From: Escherichia coli
GTDB taxonomy: Bacteria; Pseudomonadota; Gammaproteobacteria; Enterobacterales; Enterobacteriaceae
DNA: 64,000 nucleotides
Strand: one strand, 5' to 3'
NCBI RefSeq assembly: GCF_041248615.1
Contig: NZ_CP158426.1
Below, in pieces: positions 1 through 15,356 of the stretch. A model generated the notes under the pieces. The model ran no database searches. It saw nothing but the letters and a program-made list of their open reading frames with translations, and was not told the DNA's origin. How positions within the stretch are numbered: the stretch's first letter is position 1; each line of letters begins with the position of its first letter. The translations under genes and the position numbers were made by a program.

Positions 1-1117
1 TCGCCGCGAAACACTGGTAATCGGGCAGTATGGGCGTGACGGTATCAGCCTGGCAGAAGCGCGAGAAGAACTGATTGCTGCAAAGAAGCTGCTTAAAGCA
101 GGCCAGTCGCCGGCCGCGGCTAAACGTGACGGTATCAAAAAGATTCGTGGTGCCGAGACGTTTGCGGTACATACCGACAGTTATATGAAACACGTCATCC
201 TGGCTGAAAGTACCCGCGCAATGAAGCAGGCAGTGATCGACCGTGACATACTTCCGGTTCTTGGCAACAAAATGATGGCTGAAATTACCACATCGATGGT
301 TCGTGATTTGTGTGACCGGATTGTCGAACGCGGTGGTCGGGCAACAGCAGTACAGGCCAGGGAGATCATCAGCAGCGTATACCGTCACGCCAATGACCGT
401 GGTCATGGTTTGTTTAATCCTGCGGCTGACATTAAACCTTCGTCTATCGCCATATTTAAACCACGAGAGCGAACACTGACACCAGAAGAAATTGGTCTGT
501 TCTTCCGCACGCTGGATGCCATTGGTGCTATGGGCACTATGAAAATGGCTTTAAAGCTGGTGCTTATCACTATGGTCCGTAAAGGCGAATTCACCAATGC
601 AACGTGGGATGAAATAGATTTTAAAAAATGGACATGGACAATTCCTTCAGACCGCATGAAGGGAAGTCGGGCGCACGTTATTTACCTGCCTAAACAGGCA
701 CAGGATATATTAGTCGGGTTGCAGATGTGCGCTGGTGGAAGTGAATATCTGGTTCCTGGTCGTTACAATTTCCGGAAGCCATTATCTAATGCCGCGCTGA
801 ACTCTCTGATCGACAGAACGGTGAAAATAATAAATGAAGATGGTGAGCATATTCAGGACTTCACCGTACACGATATGCGCCGTACAGCCAGTACGTTGTT
901 GCATGAGGCTGGTTATCCTTCAGACTGGATTGAAAAGGCTCTGGCACATGAGCAGAAAGGTGTGCGCGCCGTATATAACAAAGCGGAATACGCCAGACAG
1001 CGCGCCTACATGTTGCAGCAGTGGGCCGATATGATTGATTCCTGGATTAACGGGGAGCATACGGATCTGATTCCGTTCTCCCCGTCGAAGTTTGAGAGGT
1101 GGATGGCGGGGGAATAA
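1..1117 (+). CDS. int: Tyrosine integrase (P4-like), 5'-partial
   Basis: Reading frame is open from window position 2 and continuous with ORF 185..1117; C-terminal catalytic region HDMRRT...VRAVYNKAEY...WAD typical of tyrosine recombinases. Confidence 0.88.
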   Translation, partial: RRETLVIGQYGRDGISLAEAREELIAAKKLLKAGQSPAAAKRDGIKKIRGAETFAVHTDSYMKHVILAESTRAMKQAVIDRDILPVLGNKMMAEITTSMVRDLCDRIVERGGRATAVQAREIISSVYRHANDRGHGLFNPAADIKPSSIAIFKPRERTLTPEEIGLFFRTLDAIGAMGTMKMALKLVLITMVRKGEFTNATWDEIDFKKWTWTIPSDRMKGSRAHVIYLPKQAQDILVGLQMCAGGSEYLVPGRYNFRKPLSNAALNSLIDRTVKIINEDGEHIQDFTVHDMRRTASTLLHEAGYPSDWIEKALAHEQKGVRAVYNKAEYARQRAYMLQQWADMIDSWINGEHTDLIPFSPSKFERWMAGE

Positions 1118-1120
1118 CGT

Positions 1121-1315
1121 TTAATTATTCTGCTGATTTTCTTCCATCTCGGCTTCTGCTGCCAGTGATTCAATTTTATCTGCGAATATTGCTGACAGTG
1201 TTGCAAATTCAGCATCAGTGACAGCGGGAATTGGAACAAACCTGATCCCGCTGTGTGCAAGCATGTTTGCAGTTTCAAGGCATTTCCTTAAATCTGCTGG
1301 TGATGCCCTGTTCAT
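1121..1315 (-). CDS. Hypothetical small protein (64 aa), start overlaps stop of methyltransferase gene (ATGA)
   Basis: In-frame ATG at 1315 overlapping MTase stop; the longer 104-aa ORF in the track is likely an overcall. Confidence 0.35.
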   Translation of the reverse strand: MNRASPADLRKCLETANMLAHSGIRFVPIPAVTDAEFATLSAIFADKIESLAAEAEMEENQQNN

Positions 1316-1962
1316 GCTGCACGCTCCCGCCCCTGGTTGTCTGTTGGTGACAGCGGAGCATTGCTGAATGCATTTGTTAATCTGGCAATATCCAACGCGT
1401 ATCCAGGGTGTAGTTGCACTGCCGGGTCTTCGCACTGATTACCCCAAACATCGAAACCATGAGACGACTGGCGGGCGAACAGTTCAATGCGAGAAACATC
1501 GCCTAACAATTGCACAAGTTTTTCACGAACGATATCTGGTTTTCTTGAATGCTCAAGCCGCGGTGCGGTAAATGACTGAACGATCCCTGCATTAATGCGC
1601 GTAGGTAGTTTTCCCTTTACCGCAAACAGGCAATCTTCACTATTGGCGCGAGTCATGTGCCCCATACCCATAACCAGTTTATCTGGTTGTCGACTACCAC
1701 ATTTTATCCACGTGAAGCCCTTCATCGTCATCAGACGAAATCCCCAGGCTTCAACAACTTTTAGTGCTTCGAGTGGTTGTGTTGGCACCCACCACATGGC
1801 CAACAGACAGTTTTCATCGGCCAAATCCCACACAGGAAGGCGGCAGATATCCATCACACTCATAACCGGATATTTAAAACCGGCACCGCGATTACCATCT
1901 GCGGCTTTGTCCCGGTATACCCAGGGTGGATCTGCATAGATTAGTGTGTATTTCTTAGTCAT
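1312..1962 (-). CDS. MT-A70 family DNA N6-adenine methyltransferase (orphan)
   Basis: Motif YADPPW near N-terminus (DPPW catalytic motif); no adjacent restriction endonuclease. Confidence 0.7.
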   Translation of the reverse strand: MTKKYTLIYADPPWVYRDKAADGNRGAGFKYPVMSVMDICRLPVWDLADENCLLAMWWVPTQPLEALKVVEAWGFRLMTMKGFTWIKCGSRQPDKLVMGMGHMTRANSEDCLFAVKGKLPTRINAGIVQSFTAPRLEHSRKPDIVREKLVQLLGDVSRIELFARQSSHGFDVWGNQCEDPAVQLHPGYALDIARLTNAFSNAPLSPTDNQGRERAA

Positions 1963-2254
1963 AAACCACCCCGCAACATCCTATACCGCTATAGTCGCCA
2001 CGGCGAAGGCCGTTACCTTTTGTGATACATTGGTCCCTGCGAACCGCGATCCTTGCACGCTCAACATCACCAGAAGCAACATCCATACACTGAAGCCAAA
2101 GGTGAGCGGCAATGCGGAACTGTCCTTTTTTCTCTCTTTCAATTGCGCGTTTTTCGATCTCTATCGCCGCAGGAGTAACGGCGACAATCTTTGACGGACT
2201 GCGCATTGAAACCTTGTTCATGTGATATTTTTCAAGTCGGCTTAACTTTCTCAC
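1955..2254 (-). CDS. Hypothetical early protein
   Basis: ORF in early leftward operon, 8-nt overlap with downstream MTase start; no recognised motif. Confidence 0.4.
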   Translation of the reverse strand: MRKLSRLEKYHMNKVSMRSPSKIVAVTPAAIEIEKRAIEREKKGQFRIAAHLWLQCMDVASGDVERARIAVRRDQCITKGNGLRRGDYSGIGCCGVVYD

Positions 2255-2363
2255 TTAATCCAACCCTCTCTGAAAATTAATGCCAGCAGATAAAGCCATG
2301 CTGAAACAGAGGCCAGGAATAAGTACCATCCTGACCATTTGCTCCAGTGCCTTAGCAGCACAC

Positions 2364-2612
2364 TCATGCAGCGTTGCTCACAGGACGATATACACGTTGC
2401 TGAACAGGAGGCTTTTTACCCTGGAACTCTGCCGGGCTTGCTGCCTGACGTTCATCAAGCCAACGCTCAACTTCGTCACGGTTCCATGCGCAGCGTTTGT
2501 CAGTGATATACCAGCGTTTAGGAAATTCACCTGCGCGCTCCATACGGTCGATAGTGCTCCATGACAGTGGCACCACCGCCAGGAGTTCCTTCTTACCTAA
2601 TGCACCTTTCAT
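2364..2612 (-). CDS. AlpA-family DNA-binding protein / putative excisionase
   Basis: 82 aa; LSWSTIDRMERAGEFPKRWYI...WNRDEVERWLDER matches AlpA/Xis-type winged HTH; located near int. Confidence 0.65.
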   Translation of the reverse strand: MKGALGKKELLAVVPLSWSTIDRMERAGEFPKRWYITDKRCAWNRDEVERWLDERQAASPAEFQGKKPPVQQRVYRPVSNAA

Positions 2613-2661
2613 AAATACCTCTCTTGGTTGCAGTGCGGCGCGCGTGGCGCCGCGGTGGTGG

Positions 2662-3543
2662 TTACATAGATGTTTCGTTTAATTCTTCCCGACGAACGCT
2701 GTAAACGTCGGTGGCTTTTGCCAGCAGTTCGTCATCATCTGAAAGTTTTTGTGCAATGTATTTGTAAGCCTTATCCAGTTCGGAGACAGTGCTGTAATTC
2801 ATCGCTGCGCTGGTAAAGGCCATCAGCATTTCTTCTGGATCACGGCTATCCGCTTTACGCGTTTGCTCATCATGCTTTTTCACTGGTTTAGCGTTGATCA
2901 GACTGTTCATTCCCGCAGCAGTAGTCGTTTGCGGAGTAATGTCTCGCTCAACGCGCGGTGCCGTTTCCTGTAATTCGTCAGGGGTGTAAACACCGAGAAG
3001 CACATCAGGAGCGTGCAGGCGAGCCCATCGTTTCGTGCAAAGATAGGCAAGCTGCTGGCGCGGATCCTGTTCCCACAATGGAGAGTTACGCACTCCGGCT
3101 TGCGCCATACTGATGGTAAGCTCACGGGGTTCTGCTTCTCCTTTAAGAACTGCTGACACAGTTACCGTCAGATTCGGTGATTTATCTGTTTTGCCGTTAA
3201 CATTCGACCAGTCACCGCTCCAGCGATAATTCAGGCGTGTCGCTAGCAGGCTGGAAGAGGATACGACCGCGTTTACCAACTGTGCTTCGTAGCCTAACGT
3301 TCCGTTTACCACATGCGTTTTCTGCGCCACGGCGAAAGGGTTCATTCCCCACTGTGCCGCCTGCATGGTCACCGCCAGACAATCGGCAGGTTTGCCTTCA
3401 AGATGTTTCGGTACAGTCGCTTTGCTTTGTGACATCAACTCCGCGAAACGCACCAGTTGATTCATGCCCTCGGGGCTGAAGATTGCCGCAGCAGTGCCTA
3501 CAGTTGCGCCTGGTTGTGATGTGATTGCGATATCATTGCTCAT
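2662..3543 (-). CDS. Single-strand annealing protein, Bet/RecT family
   Basis: 293 aa; GMNPF region and ERDITP motif shared with lambda Bet; immediately downstream of exonuclease gene with 4-nt overlap. Confidence 0.6.
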   Translation of the reverse strand: MSNDIAITSQPGATVGTAAAIFSPEGMNQLVRFAELMSQSKATVPKHLEGKPADCLAVTMQAAQWGMNPFAVAQKTHVVNGTLGYEAQLVNAVVSSSSLLATRLNYRWSGDWSNVNGKTDKSPNLTVTVSAVLKGEAEPRELTISMAQAGVRNSPLWEQDPRQQLAYLCTKRWARLHAPDVLLGVYTPDELQETAPRVERDITPQTTTAAGMNSLINAKPVKKHDEQTRKADSRDPEEMLMAFTSAAMNYSTVSELDKAYKYIAQKLSDDDELLAKATDVYSVRREELNETSM

Positions 3544-4361
3544 ACGTACATATCCTGTTTACGTGCCCAGTCAGGGCGTTTAATAATTTCCACGCCGCCC
3601 CATTCATCATTTATGCGGCATTCGTGATAGGTATTCAGATCCCGGCGGAACAGAGCGTGCCCGGCATCGACATCCGGCGCATCCAGCTCGAACACGCGTA
3701 CCGGATACCGACCACAATCAATGCTTTCGCTCACGGCAAGAAAGAAAAAACCATGCGGTTGACCAGTAACCCTCATTGCGCCTTCGCGGTACATTGCGTC
3801 CTGCACGTGGTAGCGGAATTCCTCGATGTGGCGTGCAAAACGGTCCATATCTGCAACCTTTTTCACGTCGACGATCACGTTGTGCTCGTTCAGCCATTTG
3901 TCTGGACGAATGCGGCACAACTCACCCGTCTCTTCATCGTTCCAGTACATTGATGCTTCGCAGTAACCAGGTGCTTCCAGCATCCAGCGTGCCGCCGGAT
4001 GAGCCATTGCGCTATCACGCATGAGCTCAAGTTTTCGCCACTGCTCGACATCAAGTACCGTAATACCCATATCCGCCACATCACGAAGAAATGCTTCTTC
4101 GTCAGCTTTACCTTGTTTTGTCCGACGATCGAATTTCGGTGAAACGATGAAGCGTTTGTCAAACTCTCCAGGTTCCAGAAGCAGACAGTGCAGAGCAGTA
4201 CCCATGTCCAGTGCAGACTTCTTCTCTTCGTCTTCCGGAGCAGCCTTCACCCATTTCAGAAGGGCAGGGTTCTTAGCCACCATATCTAGCTGCGACTTAC
4301 TCACGCCGTCACCGGCGTGGTAGTCCTCGTTGCTGATATCGAAATAAATTCCCGGATTCAT
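3540..4361 (-). CDS. PD-(D/E)XK exonuclease (RecE/YqaJ-like) partner of the annealase
   Basis: 273 aa; N-terminal ISNEDYHAG..SKSQL and RPDKW...VDVKK nuclease motif. Confidence 0.6.
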   Translation of the reverse strand: MNPGIYFDISNEDYHAGDGVSKSQLDMVAKNPALLKWVKAAPEDEEKKSALDMGTALHCLLLEPGEFDKRFIVSPKFDRRTKQGKADEEAFLRDVADMGITVLDVEQWRKLELMRDSAMAHPAARWMLEAPGYCEASMYWNDEETGELCRIRPDKWLNEHNVIVDVKKVADMDRFARHIEEFRYHVQDAMYREGAMRVTGQPHGFFFLAVSESIDCGRYPVRVFELDAPDVDAGHALFRRDLNTYHECRINDEWGGVEIIKRPDWARKQDMYV

Positions 4362-4672
4362 GCCGCGTCCCTCTGCCCATCAATCTGATCAGCCAGATCC
4401 CAGCGGGCGATAATTGCCATTGCCTCGCGCCGGTAGGCATCCATCAGTTCTTCGAACTCAGGGCTGTCTTTAGCAGCCTCCAGCACTTCCTGACGAACGC
4501 CTTTGCCTGTTACAACGTCGAAAGTTGAGGACAGTTGATGAAGTCGGATGCTCTCAATCAGTTCAACTTGTCGGTCATATAGCTGTTCTGACAGGCGGTA
4601 GTCCTTGTCGAATGCCAGCATGATTTTTTGAAGATTTTTCTGCTGATTAACGTTCATTATCAGCCCTCCCAT
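4358..4672 (-). CDS. Hypothetical early protein (104 aa)
   Basis: ORF in leftward early operon overlapping exonuclease start; no motif recognised. Confidence 0.45.
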   Translation of the reverse strand: MGGLIMNVNQQKNLQKIMLAFDKDYRLSEQLYDRQVELIESIRLHQLSSTFDVVTGKGVRQEVLEAAKDSPEFEELMDAYRREAMAIIARWDLADQIDGQRDAA

Positions 4673-4812
4673 ATCTCGTTATCGTTGGCTACATCGCGAG
4701 CTTCTTTGCTGACGAAAGCCCACTTAATGCCTTCCTGTAAGGTGCGGAACTTCCAGCTCATGAATCCGCATGCAGTAACGCAGTACCAACCGTTGATGAT
4801 TTTCCACTGCAT
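4660..4812 (-). CDS. Possible small protein (50 aa), first gene of leftward operon
   Basis: ATG at 4812 preceded by GAGG; below ORF-track threshold; speculative. Confidence 0.25.
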   Translation of the reverse strand: MQWKIINGWYCVTACGFMSWKFRTLQEGIKWAFVSKEARDVANDNEIWEG

Positions 4813-4818
4813 AACTTG

Positions 4819-4908
4819 TTACCTCGGTCTGTTACTGTTGAGGTAATGATTATGCGTATCTGGTTTGATGTCAATAGATATGAGTTAAAAAAATTACCCA
4901 TAAGGTAA
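4819..4908. promoter_or_regulatory. OL-like operator cluster: TTACC half-site at 4819, TTACTGTTGAGGTAA (4832-4846), TTACCCATAAGGTAA (4894-4908)
   Basis: TTACC-N5-GGTAA palindromes located between repressor gene 3' terminator and first leftward early gene. Confidence 0.55.
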
Positions 4909-4920
4909 TCTTGTTGGCAA

Positions 4921-4944
4921 TAAAAAAGCCGCCATAAGGCGGCT
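4921..4944 (-). terminator. Rho-independent terminator downstream of repressor gene
   Basis: Stem AGCCGCC/GGCGGCT, loop ATAA, A-run on plus strand = T-run on minus. Confidence 0.6.
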
Positions 4945-4965
4945 TACTTACTGAAAAATATGATT

Positions 4966-5550
4966 TTATTGTTTGTTTTTTTCGTTCTGGTTGATGACAA
5001 ATTCAATGTAACTTTCGATCTTTGCCTTCTCTGTTTCAGGTAACAATGCGTAGCGCGAGCGGTCATAGTTGATAGTTGCAGGGTCATGCGGATGAATCAG
5101 TAGTTCATATCCGTGACGCCCGAATGCAGATGCAACATTCTCCAGGGTGGAAATGGAAACGCTGACTTCATTGTTTAACAGGCGGCTTATTGTCACCTGG
5201 GCGACGCCGGATGCGCGGTGAAGTTTTCCCTGAGTTGAAAGGTCGCGGCTTTCACTCATCCAGCGTTCCAGGTTGTGAGCTGCCAGCTGACCAATGTCGC
5301 TTGGGCCGACAGGCTGAAAACCTTCCTGAGAAAGCGAGCGATCGATATCAAGCCAGTTACGGGGTTTATTGGCGGCAGCTTCAATTTTTCGCGCAACCTG
5401 GTCGCCGATAACCTTCTTGCCAAGAGCCCAGCGGTTTACCAGATTTGCCTGAGTTCCAAGTTTTTCTGCCATCCGCGTCTGAACACCATTGAATTCACGG
5501 TCGATCAAGTCGTTGAGATTTTGCCTGCGGACGTCCTGGATACTTTTCAT
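4966..5550 (-). CDS. CI-like prophage repressor with two HTH (XRE-type) domains, no S24 peptidase domain
   Basis: 194 aa; two HTH-like segments (res ~10-65 and ~100-150); divergent from Cro-like gene; operator clusters on both sides. Confidence 0.6.
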   Translation of the reverse strand: MKSIQDVRRQNLNDLIDREFNGVQTRMAEKLGTQANLVNRWALGKKVIGDQVARKIEAAANKPRNWLDIDRSLSQEGFQPVGPSDIGQLAAHNLERWMSESRDLSTQGKLHRASGVAQVTISRLLNNEVSVSISTLENVASAFGRHGYELLIHPHDPATINYDRSRYALLPETEKAKIESYIEFVINQNEKNKQ

Positions 5551-5605
5551 TTTCTGGAAAATCGCCTCATATATGAATCAGTAGATGATTCAATTTAAAG
5601 CAATA

Positions 5606-5668
5606 TTACCCAACAGGTAAATGCACCTCATAGGTAACTATCCTTGATTTTTGTTACCTTATGGGTGA
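5606..5668. promoter_or_regulatory. OR-like tripartite operator: TTACCCAACAGGTAA (5606-5620), GCACCTCATAGGTAA (5623-5637), TTACCTTATGGGTGA (5654-5668)
   Basis: Three 15-bp palindromic sites in the 154-bp gap between divergent repressor and Cro-like genes. Confidence 0.65.
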
Positions 5669-5679
5669 ATATTTATTAT
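5651..5679 (+). promoter_or_regulatory. Candidate pR: -35 TTGTTA (5651-5656), 17-bp spacer, -10 TATTAT (5674-5679)
   Basis: Sigma70-like hexamers with 17-bp spacing; third operator overlaps the spacer. Confidence 0.45.
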
Positions 5680-5704
5680 CTGAAATAAATATCAGGCAAT
5701 AGCT

Positions 5705-5935
5705 ATGAGCGATAACGGACATTTCGATTTCAAAAAGCACTGGCTTGCACTTACTCCGGATGAGCGTGAAGCCTTCGCACAGGAAGCCGGAACGACGAGT
5801 CACTATATCCAGACTCACTTAACAGGTAAGCGCAAAATGCCAGGTAAAGTATTGATGAATGGGCTTTTTAAAGCCTGTAAAACAAGACAATGGCTGCGCT
5901 CAAAAGCAGAACTGGCATACTTCTTCTACTCATGA
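5705..5935 (+). CDS. Cro-like small DNA-binding protein
   Basis: 76 aa, divergent from repressor, followed by terminator; HTH-like segment AFAQEAGTTSHYIQTHLTGKR. Confidence 0.5.
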   Translation: MSDNGHFDFKKHWLALTPDEREAFAQEAGTTSHYIQTHLTGKRKMPGKVLMNGLFKACKTRQWLRSKAELAYFFYS

Positions 5936-5956
5936 TATCCAGCCACAACCCTCTGT

Positions 5957-5980
5957 AGACCGCCACCCGGCGGTCTTTTC
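5957..5980 (+). terminator. Rho-independent terminator after cro-like gene
   Basis: Perfect 8-bp stem AGACCGCC/GGCGGTCT, loop ACCC, followed by TTTTC. Confidence 0.7.
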
Positions 5981-5990
5981 ATATCTATTC

Positions 5991-6005
5991 GTACCTCAAA
6001 GGTAA
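5991..6005. promoter_or_regulatory. Operator-like site GTACCTCAAAGGTAA downstream of cro terminator
   Basis: Imperfect TTACC-N5-GGTAA palindrome preceded by ATATCTATTCGTA, a 13-mer that recurs at 34241. Confidence 0.45.
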
Positions 6006-6085
6006 TAAAAAACCAAATCTGGTTGATCTTTTTTTTGTGTCAGCACAAAATGACCGTAATCCCAATACTAATAACAGGGCTTACC

Positions 6086-6286
6086 ATGGAAATCATTACA
6101 CGTATTGATGCCGCAAAGCGCGGACTTAAACGCTACTACACCGGAAAAACATGTAAGCACGGACATGACAGTGAACGCTGGGTTTACAACGGACACTGTG
6201 TTGAGTGCACCATGGAATCAAACCGTCGCATCAGGGCAGAGATTAAGCAGATCATGATTAATTCCTCCCCACAACATTCAAGCTGA
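6086..6286 (+). CDS. Small Cys/His-rich (zinc-ribbon-like) protein, possible regulator
   Basis: 66 aa from ATG 6086; CKHGH...CVEC motif; the longer track ORF from 6023 lacks an RBS. Confidence 0.4.
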   Translation: MEIITRIDAAKRGLKRYYTGKTCKHGHDSERWVYNGHCVECTMESNRRIRAEIKQIMINSSPQHSS

Positions 6287-6301
6287 TAGCGGAGATTAAT
6301 C

Positions 6302-7117
6302 ATGAGCAGACATGCAACAGATTGGGCCTGGGAGACAGATCCAGGTAGCTCGTCATTAAAGCTCATACTGCTCTCGATGGCTGACAGAGCCGATGAATAT
6401 AACCTCTGCTACCCCAGCATAGAACGCCTCGTTAAAGACACTTGCCTGAATAAAAAAACCGTGCAGGCCGGGCTTATATCGCTCATGAAAATGGGGCTTA
6501 TTTCAGATACCGGAGAGAGAAAGGGGGCGACGAAAAGAGTACGGGTTTTCTCTCTTAATATAACCAAAAACGGGAACATTAAAGGCAACCGGGAGGGGGG
6601 TAATGAACCCGAAAACGGTAATGTTACCGAAAACGGGAATATACCCAAAAACGGGATGTTGAATGATCCCAAAAACGGGATGTTGAATGATCCCAAAAAC
6701 GGGATCCAGAACCAGTCATATAACCAGTCATTTAACCAAGAGAGGGAGAGCAGGACAAAAAGCGGGGATTCTGTGCCTCATGACCCCGGCGCAAACAACG
6801 CCGTGATGAATAACTTTGTTCCTCCTGGTGGGCCAGGGCAATTAGGCAAATTTGTCATGCATGAACAATGGCAGCCATCAGATGACTTTCTTCGGAAAAG
6901 CTCATTGCAGGGGATCTACCTGGACAGTCTGCCAACGGCACAGGAACTTGCAGAGTTCAGAATTTACTGGATGGCTGAGGGTAAGGCATACCATCAGGCA
7001 CAGTGGGAGCAGAAGCTGGCAAGGCGGCTGCAGATTAGCAGACAGAAGCAATCAACATTACCTGATAACAACGTTCCGCACTGGAACAGCCCTGAAGCAT
7101 GGGAGGATTTCTTGTGA
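6302..7117 (+). CDS. Replication initiator (O-like) with N-terminal HTH and DnaT-like C-terminal domain; contains origin iterons
   Basis: C-terminus GKFVMHEQWQPSDDFL...EFRIYWMAEGKAYHQAQWEQKLARRLQI resembles E. coli DnaT C-terminus; iteron array inside gene. Confidence 0.7.
   Translation: MSRHATDWAWETDPGSSSLKLILLSMADRADEYNLCYPSIERLVKDTCLNKKTVQAGLISLMKMGLISDTGERKGATKRVRVFSLNITKNGNIKGNREGGNEPENGNVTENGNIPKNGMLNDPKNGMLNDPKNGIQNQSYNQSFNQERESRTKSGDSVPHDPGANNAVMNNFVPPGGPGQLGKFVMHEQWQPSDDFLRKSSLQGIYLDSLPTAQELAEFRIYWMAEGKAYHQAQWEQKLARRLQISRQKQSTLPDNNVPHWNSPEAWEDFL
6564..6707. repeat. Iteron array (6 direct repeats CC(A/G)AAAACGG(G/T)A..., including a perfect 24-bp tandem duplicate 6644-6667 / 6668-6691); probable phage origin of replication
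   Basis: Direct repeats read in sequence inside the O-like gene, analogous to lambda ori within O. Confidence 0.6.
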
Positions 7118-7899
7118 ACAACGTTTTTACCGCGATACAAAACCGTGACGGAGAAGCCCTTTCTCGCATGTCAGGTTATGAGCATCAGTACGTCAACAAT
7201 GACAATGTGGTGAACATGTCAGCAGAGAGGCTTGTTGATGCCCTTTTTAAACAGCTGAAACAACTGTTTCCGGCGGCAGTGGTAACCAACCTGAAGACGC
7301 CAGAGCAGGAAGTTGCTGCAAAACAGCAGTGGATTGCTGCGTTTGCCGAAGGGGGGATCCGAACCCGTGAACAGGTTTCTGCTGGTATGCGCCACGCCCG
7401 CGCCAGTGAATCTCCGTTCTGGCCGTCTCCAGGGCAATTTATCAAGTGGTGCAAAGACAGCAAGATGGTTCTTGGCGTCACCATTGACGATGTGATGGCG
7501 GAGTTTCACCGGTACAGCAAGGAAAAAAGTTTATATCCTGGTGGTCCCGAAAGATTCCCGTGGCGACATCCGGTTATGTACTGGGTCGTATGTGATACCC
7601 GCCGTGCAATGTATCAGCGCCAGCTTAGCGAGATTGAGGTTGAGAAACACGCGCGCAGGCTGCTCGATGATTGGGCGAAAAAGGTGGCTTCCGGACAGCA
7701 GATACCCGATCCGGTGATCAGCATACAGGCAAAGCCAGAACCCATGAGTACACCTCCGGACACAGGGAGAGACGTTTACCATCCACCAGGGCGAAGTTTC
7801 GGGTGCATGCCTAACGCCGCCACCCTTGGGGGAATAACACCGGCGCAGTGGCTGATGGAGGAATACAGGCGGGGAAAGGCGGCAGGATTTATCAAGTAA
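7099..7899 (+). CDS. Replication protein P-like helicase loader
   Basis: Segment QQWIAAFAEGGIRTREQVSAGMRHARASESPFWPSPGQFIKWC aligns with lambda P (RRQWVLAFRENGITTMEQVNAGMRVARRQNRPFLPSPGQFVAWC); true start may be slightly downstream of 7099. Confidence 0.75.
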   Translation: MGGFLVNNVFTAIQNRDGEALSRMSGYEHQYVNNDNVVNMSAERLVDALFKQLKQLFPAAVVTNLKTPEQEVAAKQQWIAAFAEGGIRTREQVSAGMRHARASESPFWPSPGQFIKWCKDSKMVLGVTIDDVMAEFHRYSKEKSLYPGGPERFPWRHPVMYWVVCDTRRAMYQRQLSEIEVEKHARRLLDDWAKKVASGQQIPDPVISIQAKPEPMSTPPDTGRDVYHPPGRSFGCMPNAATLGGITPAQWLMEEYRRGKAAGFIK

Positions 7900-7936
7900 T
7901 ACCAGCGCGATAGCGCATTTTTTTACGCCTCGACAA

Positions 7937-8013
7937 TTACCTGTTAGGTAATAAAATATTCTAAAATCTATTGATTTCGTGTCTTATGTGGTTTTTAATT
8001 ACCTCAGAGGTAA
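7937..8013. promoter_or_regulatory. Two operator-like palindromes TTACCTGTTAGGTAA (7937-7951) and TTACCTCAGAGGTAA (7999-8013) flanking TTATGTGGTT motif
   Basis: Perfect TTACC-N5-GGTAA sites in gap between P-like gene and next gene; second site ends 3 bp before ATG 8017. Confidence 0.5.
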
Positions 8014-8016
8014 ATC

Positions 8017-8370
8017 ATGAGAAAACAGATACAGGCTCTTGGTCGACTCAAAACAGGTCAGATGAACAAAACAGAATCTGCGTATTGCCAGCACCTTGAG
8101 CTGCGTAAACGTGCAGGAGAAATCGTCTGGTATCGATTTGAGGGTATCAAGCTGCGGTTAGCTGACAACTGCTTCCTGACTGTAGATTTTGCCGTGATGT
8201 TGGCTGACGGGCAGTTGGTGATGGTGGACGTTAAGGGAAGTAAGTCAGTCTTTACTGACGATGCGAGAGTCAAGATGAAGGTTGCGGCAGACAGCTATCC
8301 GTTTGTCTTTCAGGTTGCTTATCCAAAACCTAAAAAGCTCGGTGGTGGATGGGAGGTTGAGGAACTATGA
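8017..8370 (+). CDS. Hypothetical protein, DUF1064-like, possible PD-(D/E)XK nuclease fold
   Basis: 117 aa; D...VDVKG motif; family assignment from memory only. Confidence 0.45.
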   Translation: MRKQIQALGRLKTGQMNKTESAYCQHLELRKRAGEIVWYRFEGIKLRLADNCFLTVDFAVMLADGQLVMVDVKGSKSVFTDDARVKMKVAADSYPFVFQVAYPKPKKLGGGWEVEEL

Positions 8371-8975
8371 GCGAGAAGCCCAATGCTGCGGGATTGATTG
8401 TATCCGGTGATAAAAACCCGAATTGGAAGGGTGGGAAAATCGAAAAGGTTTGTTCCGTATGTGGCAGGCAATATCAGGTTAAGCGAGCCAACTCATCTTC
8501 AAGGTTCTGCTCACTTCAGTGTGTAGGAATTTCACAGCGAGGCAAGACGGTAAATCGGGAACTAAAGCGAGTATTAAAAATATGCTGCGTATGCGGATCT
8601 TCGTTCTCCGTTTTCTTGAGTCATGAGAAGCGTCATAAATGCTGCTCGAAACAGTGTTCCAACATAATGCGTTCTTCTCTGATGAAGGGGGAAGGAAATC
8701 CAAACTGGTCTGGTGGATTATCGAGATTGCCGTATCCGTGGGATTTCCGAGAAACGAGCAAGAGGGTTATTGAGCGAGATGGTTTTACTTGTCAGAACCC
8801 AGGTTGTGATGGAACAGACAAAAGGCTAACAACTCATCACATCAATTACGACAAGCAAGACTGTCGTCAGGAGAACCTTATTTGCCTTTGTTCGAGCTGT
8901 AACTCGAAGGCTAATTTCGGTCGGCATAAGTGGCAAAAGTTTTATGAATCACTGATGAAAAATAGATCGGCATGA
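8367..8975 (+). CDS. HNH endonuclease with two N-terminal zinc-ribbon-like modules
   Basis: 202 aa; C-terminal HHINYDKQDCRQENLICLCSSCNSKAN (HNH motif); two CxxC...C..C clusters. Confidence 0.7.
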   Translation: MSEKPNAAGLIVSGDKNPNWKGGKIEKVCSVCGRQYQVKRANSSSRFCSLQCVGISQRGKTVNRELKRVLKICCVCGSSFSVFLSHEKRHKCCSKQCSNIMRSSLMKGEGNPNWSGGLSRLPYPWDFRETSKRVIERDGFTCQNPGCDGTDKRLTTHHINYDKQDCRQENLICLCSSCNSKANFGRHKWQKFYESLMKNRSA

Positions 8976-9036
8976 ATCGACGATCTTTTTAGTTATCAAT
9001 GTAATCAATAAGTTATGCGGATAAGCGAGGGTAAAG

Positions 9037-9618
9037 ATGGAAAGTAATATCAAAGGGTTAGTTGCCGCCGGGCATGAGATGGCTTCGGAACTGAAAGCAG
9101 AATGTGGTGCCGTTGATATGCGTAGTGTGGCAAAGCTGATCAGCGATTTGGCAACGCAACTGGAAGTGCAACTGGTGCGTGCTAATGCGCTGGCCGAAGA
9201 CCAACAGAAAGCGATTGAGTCAATTAAGCAGGCTGATTCGGCTGTTAAGTTGGCACACGAGAAGTTTTCGGCGCTGGCAGCGGAGAATGCAAAGCTGAAG
9301 AAGTTCTGCAAAGACGCTGCATTCGATGCCGATTACGAAGCAGAGCTAGGTATGGAGAGAGGTGGATTCAGTGATGCGCTTAACGAAATCAAAACCCCAG
9401 CCACCGATGCTTTCCTGGCTGAAGTGCGGGCGCAGGGCGTGGATGCTGCTATAGAAGCTGCAAAAAATCTGGTGGCCCAAGAATATGAGTATAAGGATTT
9501 CAAAGCGGCGCAGAGTGATTGCTGTATGCACCCTGGTTCAGACCTGGTAGGGAAGGTTGAAATAACTGAGTGGTTAGTTGACTTTGCTGCCCAGCTTCGC
9601 AAAGGAGGCAACCAGTGA
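9037..9618 (+). CDS. Hypothetical coiled-coil protein
   Basis: 193 aa, alanine/glutamate-rich heptad-like stretch; no motif recognised. Confidence 0.45.
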   Translation: MESNIKGLVAAGHEMASELKAECGAVDMRSVAKLISDLATQLEVQLVRANALAEDQQKAIESIKQADSAVKLAHEKFSALAAENAKLKKFCKDAAFDADYEAELGMERGGFSDALNEIKTPATDAFLAEVRAQGVDAAIEAAKNLVAQEYEYKDFKAAQSDCCMHPGSDLVGKVEITEWLVDFAAQLRKGGNQ

Positions 9619-10100
9619 CTGGACATGCAGCAATCCTCGACATGTGCTGTGGCAGTCGCATGTTCTGGTTCGATAAGAATGACGACCGGGCGATATTTAG
9701 CGATATCAGAAAGGAAGAGCACACATTGTGTGATGGACGACGGCTGATAATTAGCCCTGACCTGATAGCAGATTTTCGTGCATTACCATTTGCAGACGCA
9801 TCGTTTCCGGTTGTTGTATTCGACCCTCCGCATCTTGAGCGTGTTGGTGATAACGCTTGGATGGGAAAGAAATATGGACGGCTGAATAAAGATACCTGGC
9901 GTGATGATTTGCAGCAGGGATTTAAAGAAGCCTTTCGTGTGTTGTGGCCATACGGCGTTCTGATTTTTAAATGGAATGAAACGCAAATACCTGTTCGCCA
10001 AATATTGGCACTGACCGACAGAAAGCCTGTTATCGGTCAACGAACAGGAAAGGGTGACAAGACCCACTGGATTATTTTTATGAAGGAGGGCAACCAGTGA
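9615..10100 (+). CDS. Small SAM-dependent DNA methyltransferase (DPPH motif; N6-A or N4-C)
   Basis: 161 aa; motif I-like ILDMCCGSRMF and motif IV VVVFDPPH; GTG start overlapping upstream stop. Confidence 0.55.
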   Translation: MTGHAAILDMCCGSRMFWFDKNDDRAIFSDIRKEEHTLCDGRRLIISPDLIADFRALPFADASFPVVVFDPPHLERVGDNAWMGKKYGRLNKDTWRDDLQQGFKEAFRVLWPYGVLIFKWNETQIPVRQILALTDRKPVIGQRTGKGDKTHWIIFMKEGNQ

Positions 10101-10864
10101 GCAAAATTGACTATCAGGCACTGCGTGAAAAGGCAGAGAAAGCAACGTGTGGTGTGTGGTCGCTCGAATATGGAGAGAGCCGATTTGATTGTGATGATGC
10201 GCTAATTCATCGTGACGTTGTTGGATATCTTCCCATTTGCAGAATTGAAGGAGCGCATCCTGAAAGCGGTTTCGATGAAGATTTCCAGATGGAACAGCAG
10301 GCCAATGCTGAATTTATTGCTGCCTTTAATCCAAAGGTTGCTTTGGCACTACTGGATGAACGGAAAAAAAACCAGCAATACATCAAATCCCGCGACCAGG
10401 AGAACGAGGATATTGCGCTAACGGTAGGGAAGCTGCGCGTTGAGCTGGAAGCAGCAAAAAAGCGCATAGCAGAACTGGAGAAAAGCGAAGAGCAACTCAT
10501 CAACGAGCGTGACCATGCTGAGTCTGCTTTAGCTGATATGTACTTTGCAGCAACCGGGGATAGGCCTGAGTGGAGTAACTGGTTCGGCTTTTCAGATGCC
10601 GTCGATGCCGTAGTTGACAGAATTGCTGATTTAGAAGCTAAACAATGCATTGAAGAGATGAGTAAACAAAGTTGCGAAGCTCGGGAGCGTGATTTGTTTG
10701 AATCATGGGTAATGCATTCAATTTGTATTTCCAAATCGACGCTTGAAGGATTGCGCACCGAAACTGGATACCGTAACGCGACCTTATCAGGAACAGACTT
10801 CAACCGCATGTGGGAACAATGGAAATCTATCCGCGCCGCTGGCATTCGCATCAAAGGAGAGTGA
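10097..10864 (+). CDS. Ead/Ea22-like early protein
   Basis: 255 aa; N-terminus MSKIDYQALREKAEKATCGVW resembles Ea22-like prophage proteins (memory-based); central coiled coil. Confidence 0.5.
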   Translation: MSKIDYQALREKAEKATCGVWSLEYGESRFDCDDALIHRDVVGYLPICRIEGAHPESGFDEDFQMEQQANAEFIAAFNPKVALALLDERKKNQQYIKSRDQENEDIALTVGKLRVELEAAKKRIAELEKSEEQLINERDHAESALADMYFAATGDRPEWSNWFGFSDAVDAVVDRIADLEAKQCIEEMSKQSCEARERDLFESWVMHSICISKSTLEGLRTETGYRNATLSGTDFNRMWEQWKSIRAAGIRIKGE

Positions 10865-10865
10865 T

Positions 10866-11414
10866 ATGACCACTATAACCGATAAGAAACAGTATCCCAG
10901 CGAGCAATATCTTAATGAGCTGATCACCAACATAGAGTTTGCTGCAAGGGCACCAGTTGAAGTCGTGAGAGCGATGGCAGCAGAGCTACAGAAGCGGCGC
11001 GAAGCTGATAGTGCAGAACCTGCAAGTAATCATGAAGAGTTGCCGCTTGATTATCTCCAAGGTCAAAAAGATGGTCTTGAATGGGCTGCGCAGCTTGCAG
11101 AAGCAAATCACCCACAAACTGGCGACTGGCTTTACGATGACCCGCTGGAGCTGGCTAAAGCTATCAGAAAAGGTCCTGACATGCCCGAATTCGATGGACC
11201 AACTCCGGTAACTCCGGATGGTTGGATAAGCTGTAGTGAGCGAATGCCCGCTCAAGATGATTGGATTTTAATTTATTCAAAGCACGGCGAGTATATGGCA
11301 GGACAGGTACAAGGGGAATACGTGGAGTTGAGCGACGGCACTTTATCGTGGTTAGGGAACGCCTTGTACTGGATGCCTCTACCGGAACCGCCGCAGGAGG
11401 TTAACCGTGGCTAA
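10866..11414 (+). CDS. DUF551-like protein
   Basis: C-terminal WISCSERMP...ALYWMPLPEPP resembles DUF551 signature; ATG 10866 immediately after upstream stop (track ORF start 10743 rejected). Confidence 0.5.
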   Translation: MTTITDKKQYPSEQYLNELITNIEFAARAPVEVVRAMAAELQKRREADSAEPASNHEELPLDYLQGQKDGLEWAAQLAEANHPQTGDWLYDDPLELAKAIRKGPDMPEFDGPTPVTPDGWISCSERMPAQDDWILIYSKHGEYMAGQVQGEYVELSDGTLSWLGNALYWMPLPEPPQEVNRG

Positions 11415-11688
11415 CCTGCAACTAGCCGTTAAAGGTGAATACTTCGATGCCATCATTCGCGGAGAGAAAACGGAAGAGTATCGCCTGTGTAATGACTACT
11501 GGAATAAGCGAATTATGTTCAGGGATTATGACCGACTGATTATCACAAAGGGATATCCGAAGCGCGACGACTCCAGTCGTAGAATTGACGTCCCGTATGA
11601 CGGATATGAAATCAAGACAATCACACATCCCCACTTCGGCGATAAACCGGTAAAGGTATACGCGATAAAGGTAAATATTGATGGCTAA
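11407..11688 (+). CDS. ASCH-domain-like protein
   Basis: 93 aa; GEKTEEYR resembles ASCH GxKTxExR motif. Confidence 0.45.
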   Translation: MANLQLAVKGEYFDAIIRGEKTEEYRLCNDYWNKRIMFRDYDRLIITKGYPKRDDSSRRIDVPYDGYEIKTITHPHFGDKPVKVYAIKVNIDG

Positions 11689-12019
11689 ATCAGCAGCAGA
11701 GCGCAAAGCCGCTCAGAGAGCCAGACAAGCTGCATCTGGTGTGCGTAAGCTGGAGATTGTGCTTGATGCTCAGGAAATTGAAATGCTGGAGCGTAACTGC
11801 GCCGCCCGGCGCCCTGGTCGAGATCCCTATGAAATGGCCGAGTACATCGCGCTGCTGATCCGCCAGGATGATGCCCGGGTGCGCGGGCGTATAAAATCGA
11901 TCAGCAGAAAACGTTGCGGTAAGTGCGGCGAGAGAGTTCCAGTTAATTCATGCCCGTGCAATGGTGACTCGCAATGCTGGGTGACTAAAGGCTGGCATGA
12001 AACGAAATTAATAGTGTGA
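11678..12019 (+). CDS. Hypothetical protein with C-terminal Cys cluster (CGKCG...CPCNGDSQC); candidate regulator
   Basis: 113 aa; stop codon TGA lies inside palindrome GTGACATGTCAC; last gene before packaging module. Confidence 0.45.
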   Translation: MMAKSAAERKAAQRARQAASGVRKLEIVLDAQEIEMLERNCAARRPGRDPYEMAEYIALLIRQDDARVRGRIKSISRKRCGKCGERVPVNSCPCNGDSQCWVTKGWHETKLIV

Positions 12020-12027
12020 CATGTCAC
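12016..12027. repeat. 12-bp perfect palindrome GTGACATGTCAC (copy 1 of 3)
   Basis: Exact palindrome read in sequence; overlaps stop of upstream gene; terminator 41 bp downstream. Confidence 0.9.
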
Positions 12028-12068
12028 GAGTAGATTATGCATGATGAATTTGATGTGTTTTGAATACT

Positions 12069-12094
12069 GCCGCCAACTATGGCGGCTTTATTTT
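12069..12094 (+). terminator. Rho-independent terminator between early/middle genes and packaging module
   Basis: Stem GCCGCCA/TGGCGGC, loop ACTA, followed by TTTATTTT. Confidence 0.7.
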
Positions 12095-12105
12095 GCATGG
12101 TACTA

Positions 12106-12120
12106 TTACCACAACGGTAA
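12106..12120. promoter_or_regulatory. Operator-like palindrome TTACCACAACGGTAA upstream of terS (weaker second site 12124-12138)
   Basis: Perfect half-sites, 18 bp upstream of terS ATG. Confidence 0.5.
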
Positions 12121-12137
12121 CTATTACCACGGTGGTT

Positions 12138-12734
12138 ATGATGCCTGCTGAACCTAAAACCTATAAACGCAAATCAACGCAATTTAAGCCACTAACAGCA
12201 ATGCAGGAGGCTTATTGCCAGTCATACATCAAAACGCCTGAAAACCAGACTCAGGCAGCGATTAACGCAGGATTCTCCCCAAATACAGCGGCAGTTAAAG
12301 CCAGTGTCATGATGCGCGATGAACGCATTCAAAAACGGATTGCCGAGTTGATGGAGGAGCGCAACAAACGAATGCGCGTCAGTGCTGATTACGTTCTCAT
12401 GCGCCTGGTGGAGATCGACCAGATGGACGTGATCGATATCCTCAACGACGATGGGAGCCTTAAACCAATCCGTGAGTGGCCGAAAATCTGGCGCACTACG
12501 CTTAGTGGCTTTGATCTGTCATCGACCATCATGAACATGAACGAGGATTCGATAGAGACAATCCTCAAAAAAATTAAATGGCCTGACAAGGTGAAGAACC
12601 TCGAACTGATTGGTAAGCACGTCGACGTCAACGCATTCAAAGAACGCCTGGATGTTAATGTGAATGTGACAATTGCTGATCGCATAGCGGCAGCCAGGAA
12701 GAGACTGAAAGAACGTCAGGATGGCAATCAGTGA
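12138..12734 (+). CDS. Terminase small subunit
   Basis: LTAMQEAYCQSY...QTQAAINAGFSPNTAAVKAS...RIQKRIAEL resembles small-terminase family signature; track start 12060 lies inside terminator hairpin and is rejected. Confidence 0.75.
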   Translation: MMPAEPKTYKRKSTQFKPLTAMQEAYCQSYIKTPENQTQAAINAGFSPNTAAVKASVMMRDERIQKRIAELMEERNKRMRVSADYVLMRLVEIDQMDVIDILNDDGSLKPIREWPKIWRTTLSGFDLSSTIMNMNEDSIETILKKIKWPDKVKNLELIGKHVDVNAFKERLDVNVNVTIADRIAAARKRLKERQDGNQ

Positions 12735-14206
12735 CAGATACAGCGTTATCTCCTGAAGAGCAGTTAATCGAGGATATTGCAGGGTTCACTCACGATCCGC
12801 TTGGCTATGCCCTCTATGCGTTCCCGTGGGGGGAAGAGGGTACTGAACTGGCACATGCCACCGGTCCACGTCAGTGGCAGGCCGATGCGTTCCGAGAGAT
12901 ACGTGATCACCTGCAGAATCCAGAGACGCGATATCAGCCGCTTATGCTGGCACGTGCTTCTGGTCACGGTATTGGTAAATCCGCATTCATCTCAATGCTG
13001 ATCAACTGGGGCATGTCCACTTGCGAGGATTGTAAGGTCGTGGTGACCGCCAACACCGACAACCAGCTACGAACGAAGACCTGGCCGGAAATTATCAAGT
13101 GGTCGAACCTTGCTATCACGAAAGACTGGTTTACCTGTACCGCTACCGCGATGTACAGCAATGACCCTGGGCACGACAAGCGGTGGCGAGCTGACGCAAT
13201 CCCCTGGTCTGAGCACAACACTGAGGCATTCGCCGGACTACACAACGAGCGCAAACGCATCATCGTGGTATTCGACGAAGCATCCAACATTGCCGATCTG
13301 GTGTGGGAGGTAGCAGAGGGTGCGCTGACGGACGAAGACACTGAGATTATCTGGGTGGCATTCGGAAACCCTACACGTAACACCGGGCGTTTCCGCGAAT
13401 GTTTCCGCAAATATAAACACCGCTGGAAAACTGCGCAGATTGACAGCCGGACGGTGGAAGGCACTAACAAACAGCAGTTGCAGAAATGGGTTGATGACTA
13501 CGGGGAAGACAGCGACTTCGTTAAAATCCGTGTGCGCGGCATATTCCCGGATGCATCTGAATTGCAGTTTATCCCTACCGGCCTTACTGACGAGGCAATG
13601 AAACGGGTGGTAACCGCTGCGCAGGTTGCACATGCTCCGGTGATAATCGGCGTTGACCCGGCATACTCCGGCGTTGATGACGCTGTGATATACCTGCGGC
13701 AGGGGCTGCACAGTAAGGTGCTATGGACTGGTAACAAGACCACCGACGATCTGATTATGGCGAAGCGTATCGCTGACTTTGAAGACCAGTACCAGGCTGA
13801 CGCAGTGTTCATCGACTTCGGTTACGGAACTGGTCTGAAGTCAATCGGTGATGGCTGGGGACGTACATGGCAACTTGTTCCGTTCAGCGGTGCGTCCACT
13901 GACCCGCAGATGCTTAACAAGCGTGGGGAGATGTTCAACTCATGCAAGACATGGCTGAGGCTGGGCGGCATGCTGGATGACCAGGAAACAGCAGACGACC
14001 TGTCGGCGGCAGAGTACAAAGTTCGAGTGGACGGTAAAATCGTTATCGAACCGAAGGAAGATATCAAGGAGCGGCTTGGGCGTTCTCCTGGTAAAGGCGA
14101 TGCGCTACTGCTGACGTTTGCGTTCCCTGTGTCGAAGCGTCTGCGAATTCCCGGGCAGCAGAACCAGCAAGGCAAGGCCATCACAGATTACGATCCATAT
14201 GCTTAA
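12731..14206 (+). CDS. Terminase large subunit
   Basis: 491 aa; Walker A-like ARASGHGIGKS; ATPase and nuclease-type layout; overlaps terS stop. Confidence 0.85.
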   Translation: MTDTALSPEEQLIEDIAGFTHDPLGYALYAFPWGEEGTELAHATGPRQWQADAFREIRDHLQNPETRYQPLMLARASGHGIGKSAFISMLINWGMSTCEDCKVVVTANTDNQLRTKTWPEIIKWSNLAITKDWFTCTATAMYSNDPGHDKRWRADAIPWSEHNTEAFAGLHNERKRIIVVFDEASNIADLVWEVAEGALTDEDTEIIWVAFGNPTRNTGRFRECFRKYKHRWKTAQIDSRTVEGTNKQQLQKWVDDYGEDSDFVKIRVRGIFPDASELQFIPTGLTDEAMKRVVTAAQVAHAPVIIGVDPAYSGVDDAVIYLRQGLHSKVLWTGNKTTDDLIMAKRIADFEDQYQADAVFIDFGYGTGLKSIGDGWGRTWQLVPFSGASTDPQMLNKRGEMFNSCKTWLRLGGMLDDQETADDLSAAEYKVRVDGKIVIEPKEDIKERLGRSPGKGDALLLTFAFPVSKRLRIPGQQNQQGKAITDYDPYA

Positions 14207-14280
14207 TCCGCTGGTGGGGATAATACTGCTGATATCCTCTGGTGAGGATAAAACAAAGCCAGCTCATCGGCTGGCTGTTT

Positions 14281-14929: not shown

Positions 14930-15251
14930 AACGCTGAGAGCACTTAGCCTGTTAAGGCGCCACACTTTGTCGCGGCTCCATAAATGCTCTCATCGTTGTA
15001 CCCTCGTCTCTTCCGAGGCGTCACACCGAATCGCCGGGATGGTGAATCCCCGTGCGCGGAATAAAACCGCTCGACTTGCACATTCCGGCTACCTGGTTCG
15101 TTTGCCCGAGCAAGGGAGGGTGCCCCTTAAACGTATCCAGACCGCTATCGGCGCATGTGCCATACACCGTACTGCTCAAAATAAAATCTCACTCCACCTG
15201 TTCAATTTAACGACAGGCCAGTCAGGTTAGTAACCGGAATGAACTCTTTGG

Positions 15252-15266
15252 TTACCTGAAAGGTAA
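15252..15266. promoter_or_regulatory. Operator-like palindrome TTACCTGAAAGGTAA upstream of head gene cluster, followed by ATATGTGGTT-N5-GGTAAT (15309-15329)
   Basis: Perfect TTACC-N5-GGTAA; downstream motif shared with tailspike upstream region. Confidence 0.5.
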
Positions 15267-15356
15267 TAATTTGTGCGTTAAATGTCAACTGTCTACGATA
15301 AATAAATCATATGTGGTTAAATTGGTAATAATTTAATTGCGTACGGAGTCATTGAT

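Follow-up and report, generated by a model that had tools for sequence, protein, structure and literature searches.

Which functions are encoded by the small genes that precede the recombination genes in the leftward early operon of ε15-type prophages? The question is raised by a 64,000-nucleotide (nt) stretch of the Escherichia coli contig NZ_CP158426.1, referred to below as the window, the first 39.3 kb of which constitute a prophage sharing approximately 96-98% identity with Escherichia phages of the phiV10 type (genus Uetakevirus, ε15 group); the start of the window falls within the prophage integrase gene. An earlier reading of this DNA, made from its letters alone (the sequence-only reading), had placed two small open reading frames (ORFs) of 50 and 104 amino acids (aa) at 4358-4812, ahead of an exonuclease/annealase pair in a leftward operon. 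Both ORFs are located on the minus strand as had been described, they are the first genes after the leftward promoter (PL), and the genes that follow encode a DUF3799 exonuclease and RecT. The length of 50 aa was retained, while that of the larger ORF had to be corrected: 104 aa (4358-4672) represents the mechanical maximum, and the conserved start is the ATG at 4657, which gives a protein of 99 aa (MNVNQQ...) and at whose position phiV10p38, ε15 gp36 and all homologues begin. In the current study we propose that this 99-aa protein is probably a divergent, unannotated inhibitor of RecBCD of the Gam type, which would bring the number of Gam-like sequence types, so far lambda Gam and φ80 GamL, to three. 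The genes concerned are as follows:

4660-4812, minus strand: ORF50 (phiV10p39, ε15 gp37, phrog_898), 50 aa, first gene of the leftward early operon
4358-4657, minus strand: the 99-aa gene (phiV10p38, ε15 gp36, phrog_856), proposed to encode a divergent Gam-type anti-RecBCD protein
3540-4361, minus strand: exo, RecE-type PD-(D/E)XK exonuclease (DUF3799), from a domain match
2662-3543, minus strand: recT, RecT single-strand annealing protein, from a domain match

An ATGA overlap (4361-4358) joins the stop codon of the 99-aa gene to the start codon of exo, and the stop of exo and the start of recT overlap alike.

Sequence relationship of the 99-aa protein to Gam

A word-indexed search combined with an exhaustive hidden Markov model (HMM) search over 1.84 billion cluster representatives placed the 99-aa protein in a narrow, exclusively enterobacterial family (37 clusters at E <=1e-3), and eighteen diverse members of this family were used to build a profile, A4. 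This profile matched lambda Gam as a single sequence with an E value of 0.0016, and comparison of A4 with a Gam alignment using hhalign returned a probability of 88.1% (E 3.1e-6, score 36.5) over 56 columns, with positions 31-86 aligned to Gam 33-90. As a control for this score, 400 column shuffles gave 11±2.3 with a maximum of 20.4 (maxima of 20.4-22.8 over the shuffle controls as a whole), and reversed alignments gave 16.5-17.9. The result was unchanged when the alignments were enlarged, under which conditions the accepted pair of lambda Gam and φ80 GamL (L099 7555-7836; loci L101-L180) scored 96.5% over 75 columns, with the clearest identity in the N-terminal helix. In the opposite direction, the Pfam Gam HMM (PF06064) matched the family member P0087 with an E value of 0.0042, residues 31-94 corresponding to profile positions 33-96 of 98. 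When the family profile was run against the sequences of the PDB, Gam (5mbv, 2uuz) was the best non-repeat match and was found in the same register, with an E value (0.26) that is not significant alone. Several family members carry a proline at the position of the G-L-P helix break in Gam. Taken at the level of profiles, these comparisons establish that residues 31-86 of the 99-aa protein are remotely homologous to Gam. The statement of the sequence-only reading that no similarity is recognisable thus holds for single-sequence and Pfam searches but fails at the profile level, where lambda Gam is recovered.

The general properties of the two proteins are also alike. Lambda Gam (GamS, PF06064; 2UUZ, 5MBV) is an acidic, helical protein of approximately 98 aa encoded immediately upstream of the annealase/exonuclease genes in a repressor-controlled leftward operon. 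The 99-aa protein has an isoelectric point (pI) of 4.71 and a net charge of -6, and across the 18 family members the pI lies between 4.55 and 5.2 in all cases (4.7-5.0 for Gam) and the length between 97 and 103 aa (98 for GamS). In the structure prediction that had been suggested as a check, the AlphaFold2 (AF2) model of the 99-aa protein consists of helices only (3-51, 56-63 and 66-98; predicted local distance difference test score, pLDDT, 70.7), and a Foldseek search of the PDB with this model returned no match. The differences from lambda Gam lie in the low identity, approximately 21% over the aligned part and below the Pfam threshold, in the N-terminal helix that plugs RecB, to which that of the 99-aa protein is not detectably related, and in the Chi content of the respective phages, those with Gam usually lacking Chi while the phage carrying the 99-aa gene is rich in it.

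Since GamL shares the Gam N-terminus, while the 99-aa family matches only the C-terminal two-thirds of Gam, lambda Gam is in sequence terms the bridge between GamL and the ε15-type family. Other small recombination-associated proteins were considered as relatives of the 99-aa protein and were rejected, namely RacC, which is encoded by a small gene preceding recE in Rac (E 0.64), Abc1 (E 0.32) and Abc2 (PF11043; no Pfam match, hhalign E 0.058 over 20 columns). The Abc2, Abc1 and Arf proteins of P22 are likewise small early-left proteins tied to a recombination module, and Abc2 acts on RecBCD; in contrast to the 99-aa gene, to which they bear no sequence relationship, the abc genes are located downstream rather than upstream of erf.

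Genomic context of the 99-aa family and the Mog slot

Members of the family are found directly upstream of recombination genes in differing phage backbones, usually with a 4-bp overlap, and the gene order from family gene to annealase/exonuclease is observed in the window, in 13 diverse loci and in 20 of 20 Mog-linked loci from IMG/VR. For the scanning of loci, the alignment of distant members was too diverged to be used. The partners and backbones are varied:

ε15-like phages: partner DUF3799 exonuclease and RecT
ε15 and L009: partner YqaJ exonuclease
L006: partner RecT directly
L007, the weakest member: partner Sak4-like AAA_24 protein
L010: lambdoid backbone that carries a CI repressor of the S24 type and encodes a KilR of its own

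In many relatives, a gene encoding 320-340 aa, whose product is 44-68% identical to Agt/Mog of φ80, lies between ORF50 and the family gene; a Mog homologue precedes the family gene in, among others, L008, L009, L011, L096-L098 and 20 IMG/VR loci. In φ80 this position behind mog is occupied by gamL. The functions of Mog and GamL are taken from the φ80 GenBank annotation and PMC12315714, the φ80 record describing Mog as "anti-toxin for Gam; Mog (modifier of Gam)" and the gene after it as "gamL, gam-like host nuclease inhibitor, toxic without Mog".

The neighbourhood of mog was assessed in a sample of 80 Mog loci from IMG/VR. The gene downstream of Mog belongs to the 99-aa family in 20 of these, to GamL in 14 and to lambda-type Gam in seven, and in 34 of these 41 loci the downstream match starts at a distance of 11 nt from where the Mog match ends. 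Where the family follows Mog, the next gene is an exonuclease gene in 19 cases and a RecT-like gene in the remaining one. The family is thus exchangeable with Gam and GamL in the slot between mog and the recombinase genes, and in view of this shared position and spacing the three look like alternative cassettes. The anti-RecBCD types listed for lambdoid phages are Gam, GamL, Abc2 and MuGam (PMC12315714), and the 99-aa family is not among these names. Besides its position directly behind Mog in many relatives, the family resembles φ80/Lula GamL in size and acidity; it differs in that GamL shares the N-terminus of Gam whereas the 99-aa family resembles the C-terminal two-thirds, and in that the prophage of the window has no mog gene, ORF50 abutting the 99-aa gene directly.

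A 65-aa family (MNITCECVDMRTSVG...EWLAEQGY...) was also encountered behind Mog (L189, L195, L199, L217, L243, L244, L247, L254 and L261). It starts approximately 12 nt after the Mog match, in which it resembles the Gam-type genes, and may either represent yet another type of gene in the Gam slot or have nothing to do with it.

Evaluation of the Gam-type reading

According to the reading that we favour, lifting of the repressor allows a single transcript, comprising ORF50, the 99-aa gene, exo and recT, to be produced from the leftward promoter at 4874-4846. The 99-aa protein would then, probably as an acidic helical dimer in the manner of Gam, occupy the DNA-end binding site of host RecBCD, and dimerisation, binding and inhibition are all extrapolated here from Gam. 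Occupation of RecBCD would protect the ends of linear and rolling-circle phage DNA, and the processing of double-strand ends would be handed over to the phage RecE-like exonuclease and RecT. A literature search found no experiment on the 99-aa protein or ORF50.

A number of observations weigh against this reading. With regard to sequence, no family member attains the Pfam gathering score of PF06064 (the best, P0087, reaches 17.7 bits against 25), the 99-aa protein of the window itself has no Pfam match even at an E value of 10, and its N-terminal 30 or so residues align to Gam by no method, although a helix of similar length is predicted there; in Gam it is the N-terminal helix that plugs the single-stranded DNA channel of RecB (PMC5218532). 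Similarity to GamL is colinear but not significant (hhalign E 0.075, 0.058 and 0.011). With regard to context, the downstream gene is of none of the three Gam types in 39 of the 80 Mog loci, where cIII-like genes, the 65-aa family and PerC-like genes are found among others, and Mog adjacency is therefore supportive rather than diagnostic. The most serious objection is raised by Chi (GCTGGTGG), of which the prophage contains nine copies, every one of them on the plus strand, while a trinucleotide model predicts approximately 2.0 for the plus and 0.7 for the minus strand:

731, 14210, 18746, 22214, 24016, 27190, 27605, 29437 and 30811, plus strand: Chi sites in the prophage

In ε15 the bias is the same, all six sites lying on a single strand. 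Phages that encode Gam or Abc2 are reported to avoid Chi, while phages without an inhibitor are reported to be rich in it (PMC3784561, PMC12315714), and abundant Chi speaks against RecBCD being blocked simply in the manner of lambda. Rare exceptions have been described which carry both an inhibitor and Chi, but without Chi near the recombination module (PMC12315714). The interval from 731 to 14210 (approximately 13.5 kb), which includes the recombination, immunity and replication region, is free of Chi, and with this Chi-free region around its recombination module the prophage fits that exception class.

Because of the tension with Chi, some probability has to be reserved for modulation of RecBCD rather than its silencing. 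According to this alternative, which we regard as unlikely, a Gam-like fold would not simply block the enzyme; the 99-aa protein would modulate or hijack RecBCD while still allowing recognition of Chi, as P22 Abc2 alters RecBCD, or would hit another end-processing nuclease or a RecBCD-guarding defence. The co-oriented Chi sites (nine in the prophage and six in ε15) are in the putatively active orientation (PMC12315714), which suggests that recombination through RecBCD and Chi still matters to ε15-type phages; the N-terminal helix, which in Gam is the channel plug, is not detectably related to that of Gam; and the toxicity of GamL without Mog, as given in the φ80 record, implies that Gam-type activities can be modulated. 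Against these points stand the lack of any similarity to Abc2, the fact that the aligned part is the C-terminal portion of Gam, the occurrence of bona fide Gam and GamL in the slot that the family otherwise occupies, and the Chi-free 13.5 kb, which matches the published class of exceptions. In an extended form that we consider equally improbable, a Gam-fold family with a replaced N-terminal "plug" helix would re-tune RecBCD (or another end-processing nuclease or RecBCD-guarding defence) so as to leave Chi usable beside RecE/RecT, and ORF50 would be a new small host-directed early protein of this phage group.

It is also quite unlikely that the 99-aa protein serves as an accessory factor or assembly partner of the exonuclease or RecT, comparable to P22 Arf or Abc1, without acting on host nucleases. 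Such a role would agree with the invariable location of the gene beside exo or recT, mostly overlapping the next gene, and would render the Chi-rich genome unproblematic. It is, however, hard to reconcile a specific cofactor with four unrelated sets of partners (DUF3799, YqaJ, RecT alone and Sak4-like), and the profile homology is to Gam and not to Abc1, while behind Mog the family takes the place of Gam and GamL themselves.

Should the Gam-type reading be correct, all ε15/phiV10-type phages and roughly a tenth of the complete E. coli genomes would carry a third Gam-like anti-RecBCD sequence type, now annotated there as "hypothetical", and surveys of Chi that sort phages into those with and those without an inhibitor would misclassify the ε15-type phages. 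Inhibitors of RecBCD are known to set off guard-type defences, as published for retrons and P2 Old, and compact gam-exo-recT cassettes are useful tools in recombineering. The paradox presented by Chi is the most intriguing loose end of this analysis, and a Gam-like gene located beside abundant co-oriented Chi sites provides a concrete test case for the either-or rule in phages.

Conservation and expression signals of the two small genes

The sequence-only reading had held that a lack of conservation would speak against the two ORFs. All 36 Uetakevirus-type phage records contain both genes, as do 558 of the 5426 complete E. coli genomes, where the annotation is always "hypothetical protein", and both genes gave full-length matches to PHROGs families of "unknown function" (phrog_898 for ORF50, E 2e-38; phrog_856 for the 99-aa protein, E 1e-55). 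Gene length, start codon and junctions are kept across phages of Escherichia, Salmonella, Klebsiella and Enterobacter. In pairwise comparisons with ε15, Tyrion, BUCT554 and one Klebsiella prophage, the ratio of non-synonymous to synonymous substitution rates (dN/dS) of the 99-aa gene was 0.04-0.34 at a dS of approximately 1-2, comparable to that of the repressor gene, while that of ORF50 was 0.04-0.3 in most pairs and rose to as much as 0.94 when its two types of C-terminal tail were compared. These values indicate that both genes evolve under purifying selection.

Translation signals are recognisable for both genes. ORF50 starts with the ATG at 4812, with GAGG located 9 nt upstream, and the ATG of the 99-aa gene lies 2 nt past the stop codon of ORF50 and 6 nt past its own ribosome-binding site:

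4664-4670, minus strand: GGGAGGG, Shine-Dalgarno sequence of the 99-aa gene, within the end of ORF50, as read from the sequence

The location of this site inside the end of ORF50 and the tight packing of the two genes are consistent with translational coupling.

It is highly improbable that either ORF or both lack a function and are mere passengers of the operon since, even though they are unannotated and neither window protein has a match in Pfam, NCBIfam or PADLOC, dN/dS lies well below 1 at saturating dS in most pairs and length, start and junctions are conserved across phages of four enterobacterial genera.

In phage Tyrion, a gene annotated on the opposite strand (gp39, L002 3058-3270, 70 aa) runs across the conserved ORF50 frame. 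This annotation is a probable mis-call; the ORF50 frame is conserved there, its product being 85% identical to that of the window.

ORF50

The Gam/Abc/Kil-type position which the sequence-only reading had assigned to both ORFs is borne out for the larger one, by its profile homology to Gam and its occurrence in the Gam/GamL slot, while for the 50-aa ORF no link beyond position was found. In lambda, P22, φ80 and Rac, genes of approximately 47-73 aa encoding Kil, KilR or CIII lie just ahead of the recombination module or mog, and in ε15-type phages this slot of the leftward early operon is filled by ORF50, which differs from them in being the very first gene after PL and in showing no detectable homology. 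No similarity was found between ORF50 and Kil, KilR, CIII, N, Ral, Arf, YdaE, YdaF, YdaG, lambda orf28 or Ea10; with the Kil families specifically (PF06301, PF27398) there was no Pfam match, and hhalign E values against the Kil proteins of lambda, P22, φ80 and Rac were 0.17-0.6.

The N-terminal 36 residues of ORF50 are highly conserved, with the core M-Q-W-K-I-I-N-G-W-Y-x-V-T-x-x-G-L-M-S-W-K-F-x-T-L-x-E-G-I-x-W-A-F-x-x-K, and are followed by the variable tail. Synonymous third-position changes are present within this invariant N-terminus, and neither operators nor Rfam families were found within ORF50, no Rfam family coming near threshold; the constraint therefore acts on the protein, and a hidden nucleotide-level element is, for the same reasons, unlikely. 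The conserved pattern is suggestive of a D/N-G beta-hairpin followed by a third strand and a helix, while the AF2 model is helical and of low confidence (pLDDT 54) and was not relied on. Two further candidates were rejected. A zinc-binding CxxxC motif had been suggested by one weak Phage_zn_bind_5 match, to an aberrant variant, but L008, L096 and L098 have other residues in place of the cysteines. A transmembrane helix had been suggested by the helices of the AF2 model together with a fortuitous match to part of a mucolipin, but in relatives position 7 is D/E and position 11 is R. In the divergent copies of L008, L096 and L098, neither the two cysteines nor the hydrophobic stretch is conserved.

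ORF50 occurs together with the repressor with two helix-turn-helix (HTH) domains in 18 of the 20 loci in which Mog precedes the 99-aa family, and in none of the 60 Mog loci with Gam, GamL or other genes, which carry kil, KilR or cIII homologues instead; the lambdoid locus L010 likewise lacks ORF50. The protein is still 75-85% identical between phages whose repressors have diverged to other immunity types (proportion of non-synonymous differences approximately 0.40), which suggests a conserved target, in the host or in the core of the phage, rather than an immunity-specific one. By analogy of position one may guess, and we hold this weakly, that ORF50 acts on a conserved host target, for example on cell division in the fashion of Kil; the lack of similarity to the Kil families and the poor AF2 model count against this guess.

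A possible but doubtful alternative is that ORF50 is a regulator of the lysis-lysogeny decision or of early transcription in the ε15-type switch, whether CIII-like, anti-termination-like or modulating the repressor. Its strict linkage to the region of the two-HTH repressor and its status as first cistron after PL agree with such a role, and cIII too occupies neighbouring slots in lambdoid phages. The identity that is kept across repressor immunity types argues in the opposite direction, as does the lack of similarity to CIII or N and of any arginine-rich or amphipathic CIII-like motif.

Promoter, operators and prophage setting

The control region between the repressor gene and ORF50 contains the following elements:

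4966-5550, minus strand: prophage repressor with two HTH domains (ε15 gp38/SPC32H Rep type), from domain and homologue matches
4945-4926, minus strand: Rho-independent terminator of the repressor transcript, upstream of PL
4893-4909, no strand assigned: repressor operator ATTACCCATAAGGTAAT, a perfect palindrome match, upstream of the -35 element
4874-4846, minus strand: PL-like sigma-70 promoter, with TTGACA at 4874-4869, a 17-nt spacer and AATCAT at 4851-4846
4831-4847, no strand assigned: second operator, reading ATTACCTCAACAGTAAC on the minus strand, which overlaps both the -10 element and the likely start of transcription

Six diverged phages share an invariant -35 element, CTATTGAC, and the two ATTACC-N5-GGTAAT operators that flank PL on both sides are likewise conserved in them; repressor-binding sites are annotated in the ε15 record at places homologous to both; a terminator is annotated in the phiV10 record at the position equivalent to 4945-4926. 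As the promoter is flanked by conserved operators, the two small ORFs open an early-left operon under repressor control, as its first and second cistrons. The 5' untranslated region of ORF50, estimated from the -10 element, comprises approximately 27 nt and is not predicted to fold. Altogether, 18 operator-like ATTACC-N5-GGTAAT palindromes occur in the window, where 1.9 are expected, and are scattered over the prophage (5605-5621, 5990-6006, 7936-7952, 7998-8014, 12105-12139, 15251-15267 and others), which suggests that the two-HTH repressor controls many promoters, as annotated in the ε15 record.

Past recT, the leftward gene order continues with genes for AlpA-like, PerC-like, MT-A70 methylase and DUF1382 proteins, all on the minus strand. 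In the phiV10 RefSeq record, exo and recT appear as a single fused coding sequence of 1761 nt (L001 4600-6360), while in the window (2662-4361) they are two ORFs with an ATGA overlap, as in most relatives. Small additional genes are occasionally present between the Gam-like gene and exo, one of 68 aa annotated as "MarR family" in E. coli DETEC-S566 (L181 3452-3658) and one of 45 aa in Tyrion (L002 3607-3744), and approximately 200-245 nt are inserted at this position in three IMG/VR loci. The second gene of the rightward operon (6023-6286, plus strand, 87 aa) encodes a Cys/His-rich product (...CKHGHDSERWVYNGHCVEC...) which is conserved with ε15 gp40 and looks like a small zinc-binding protein.

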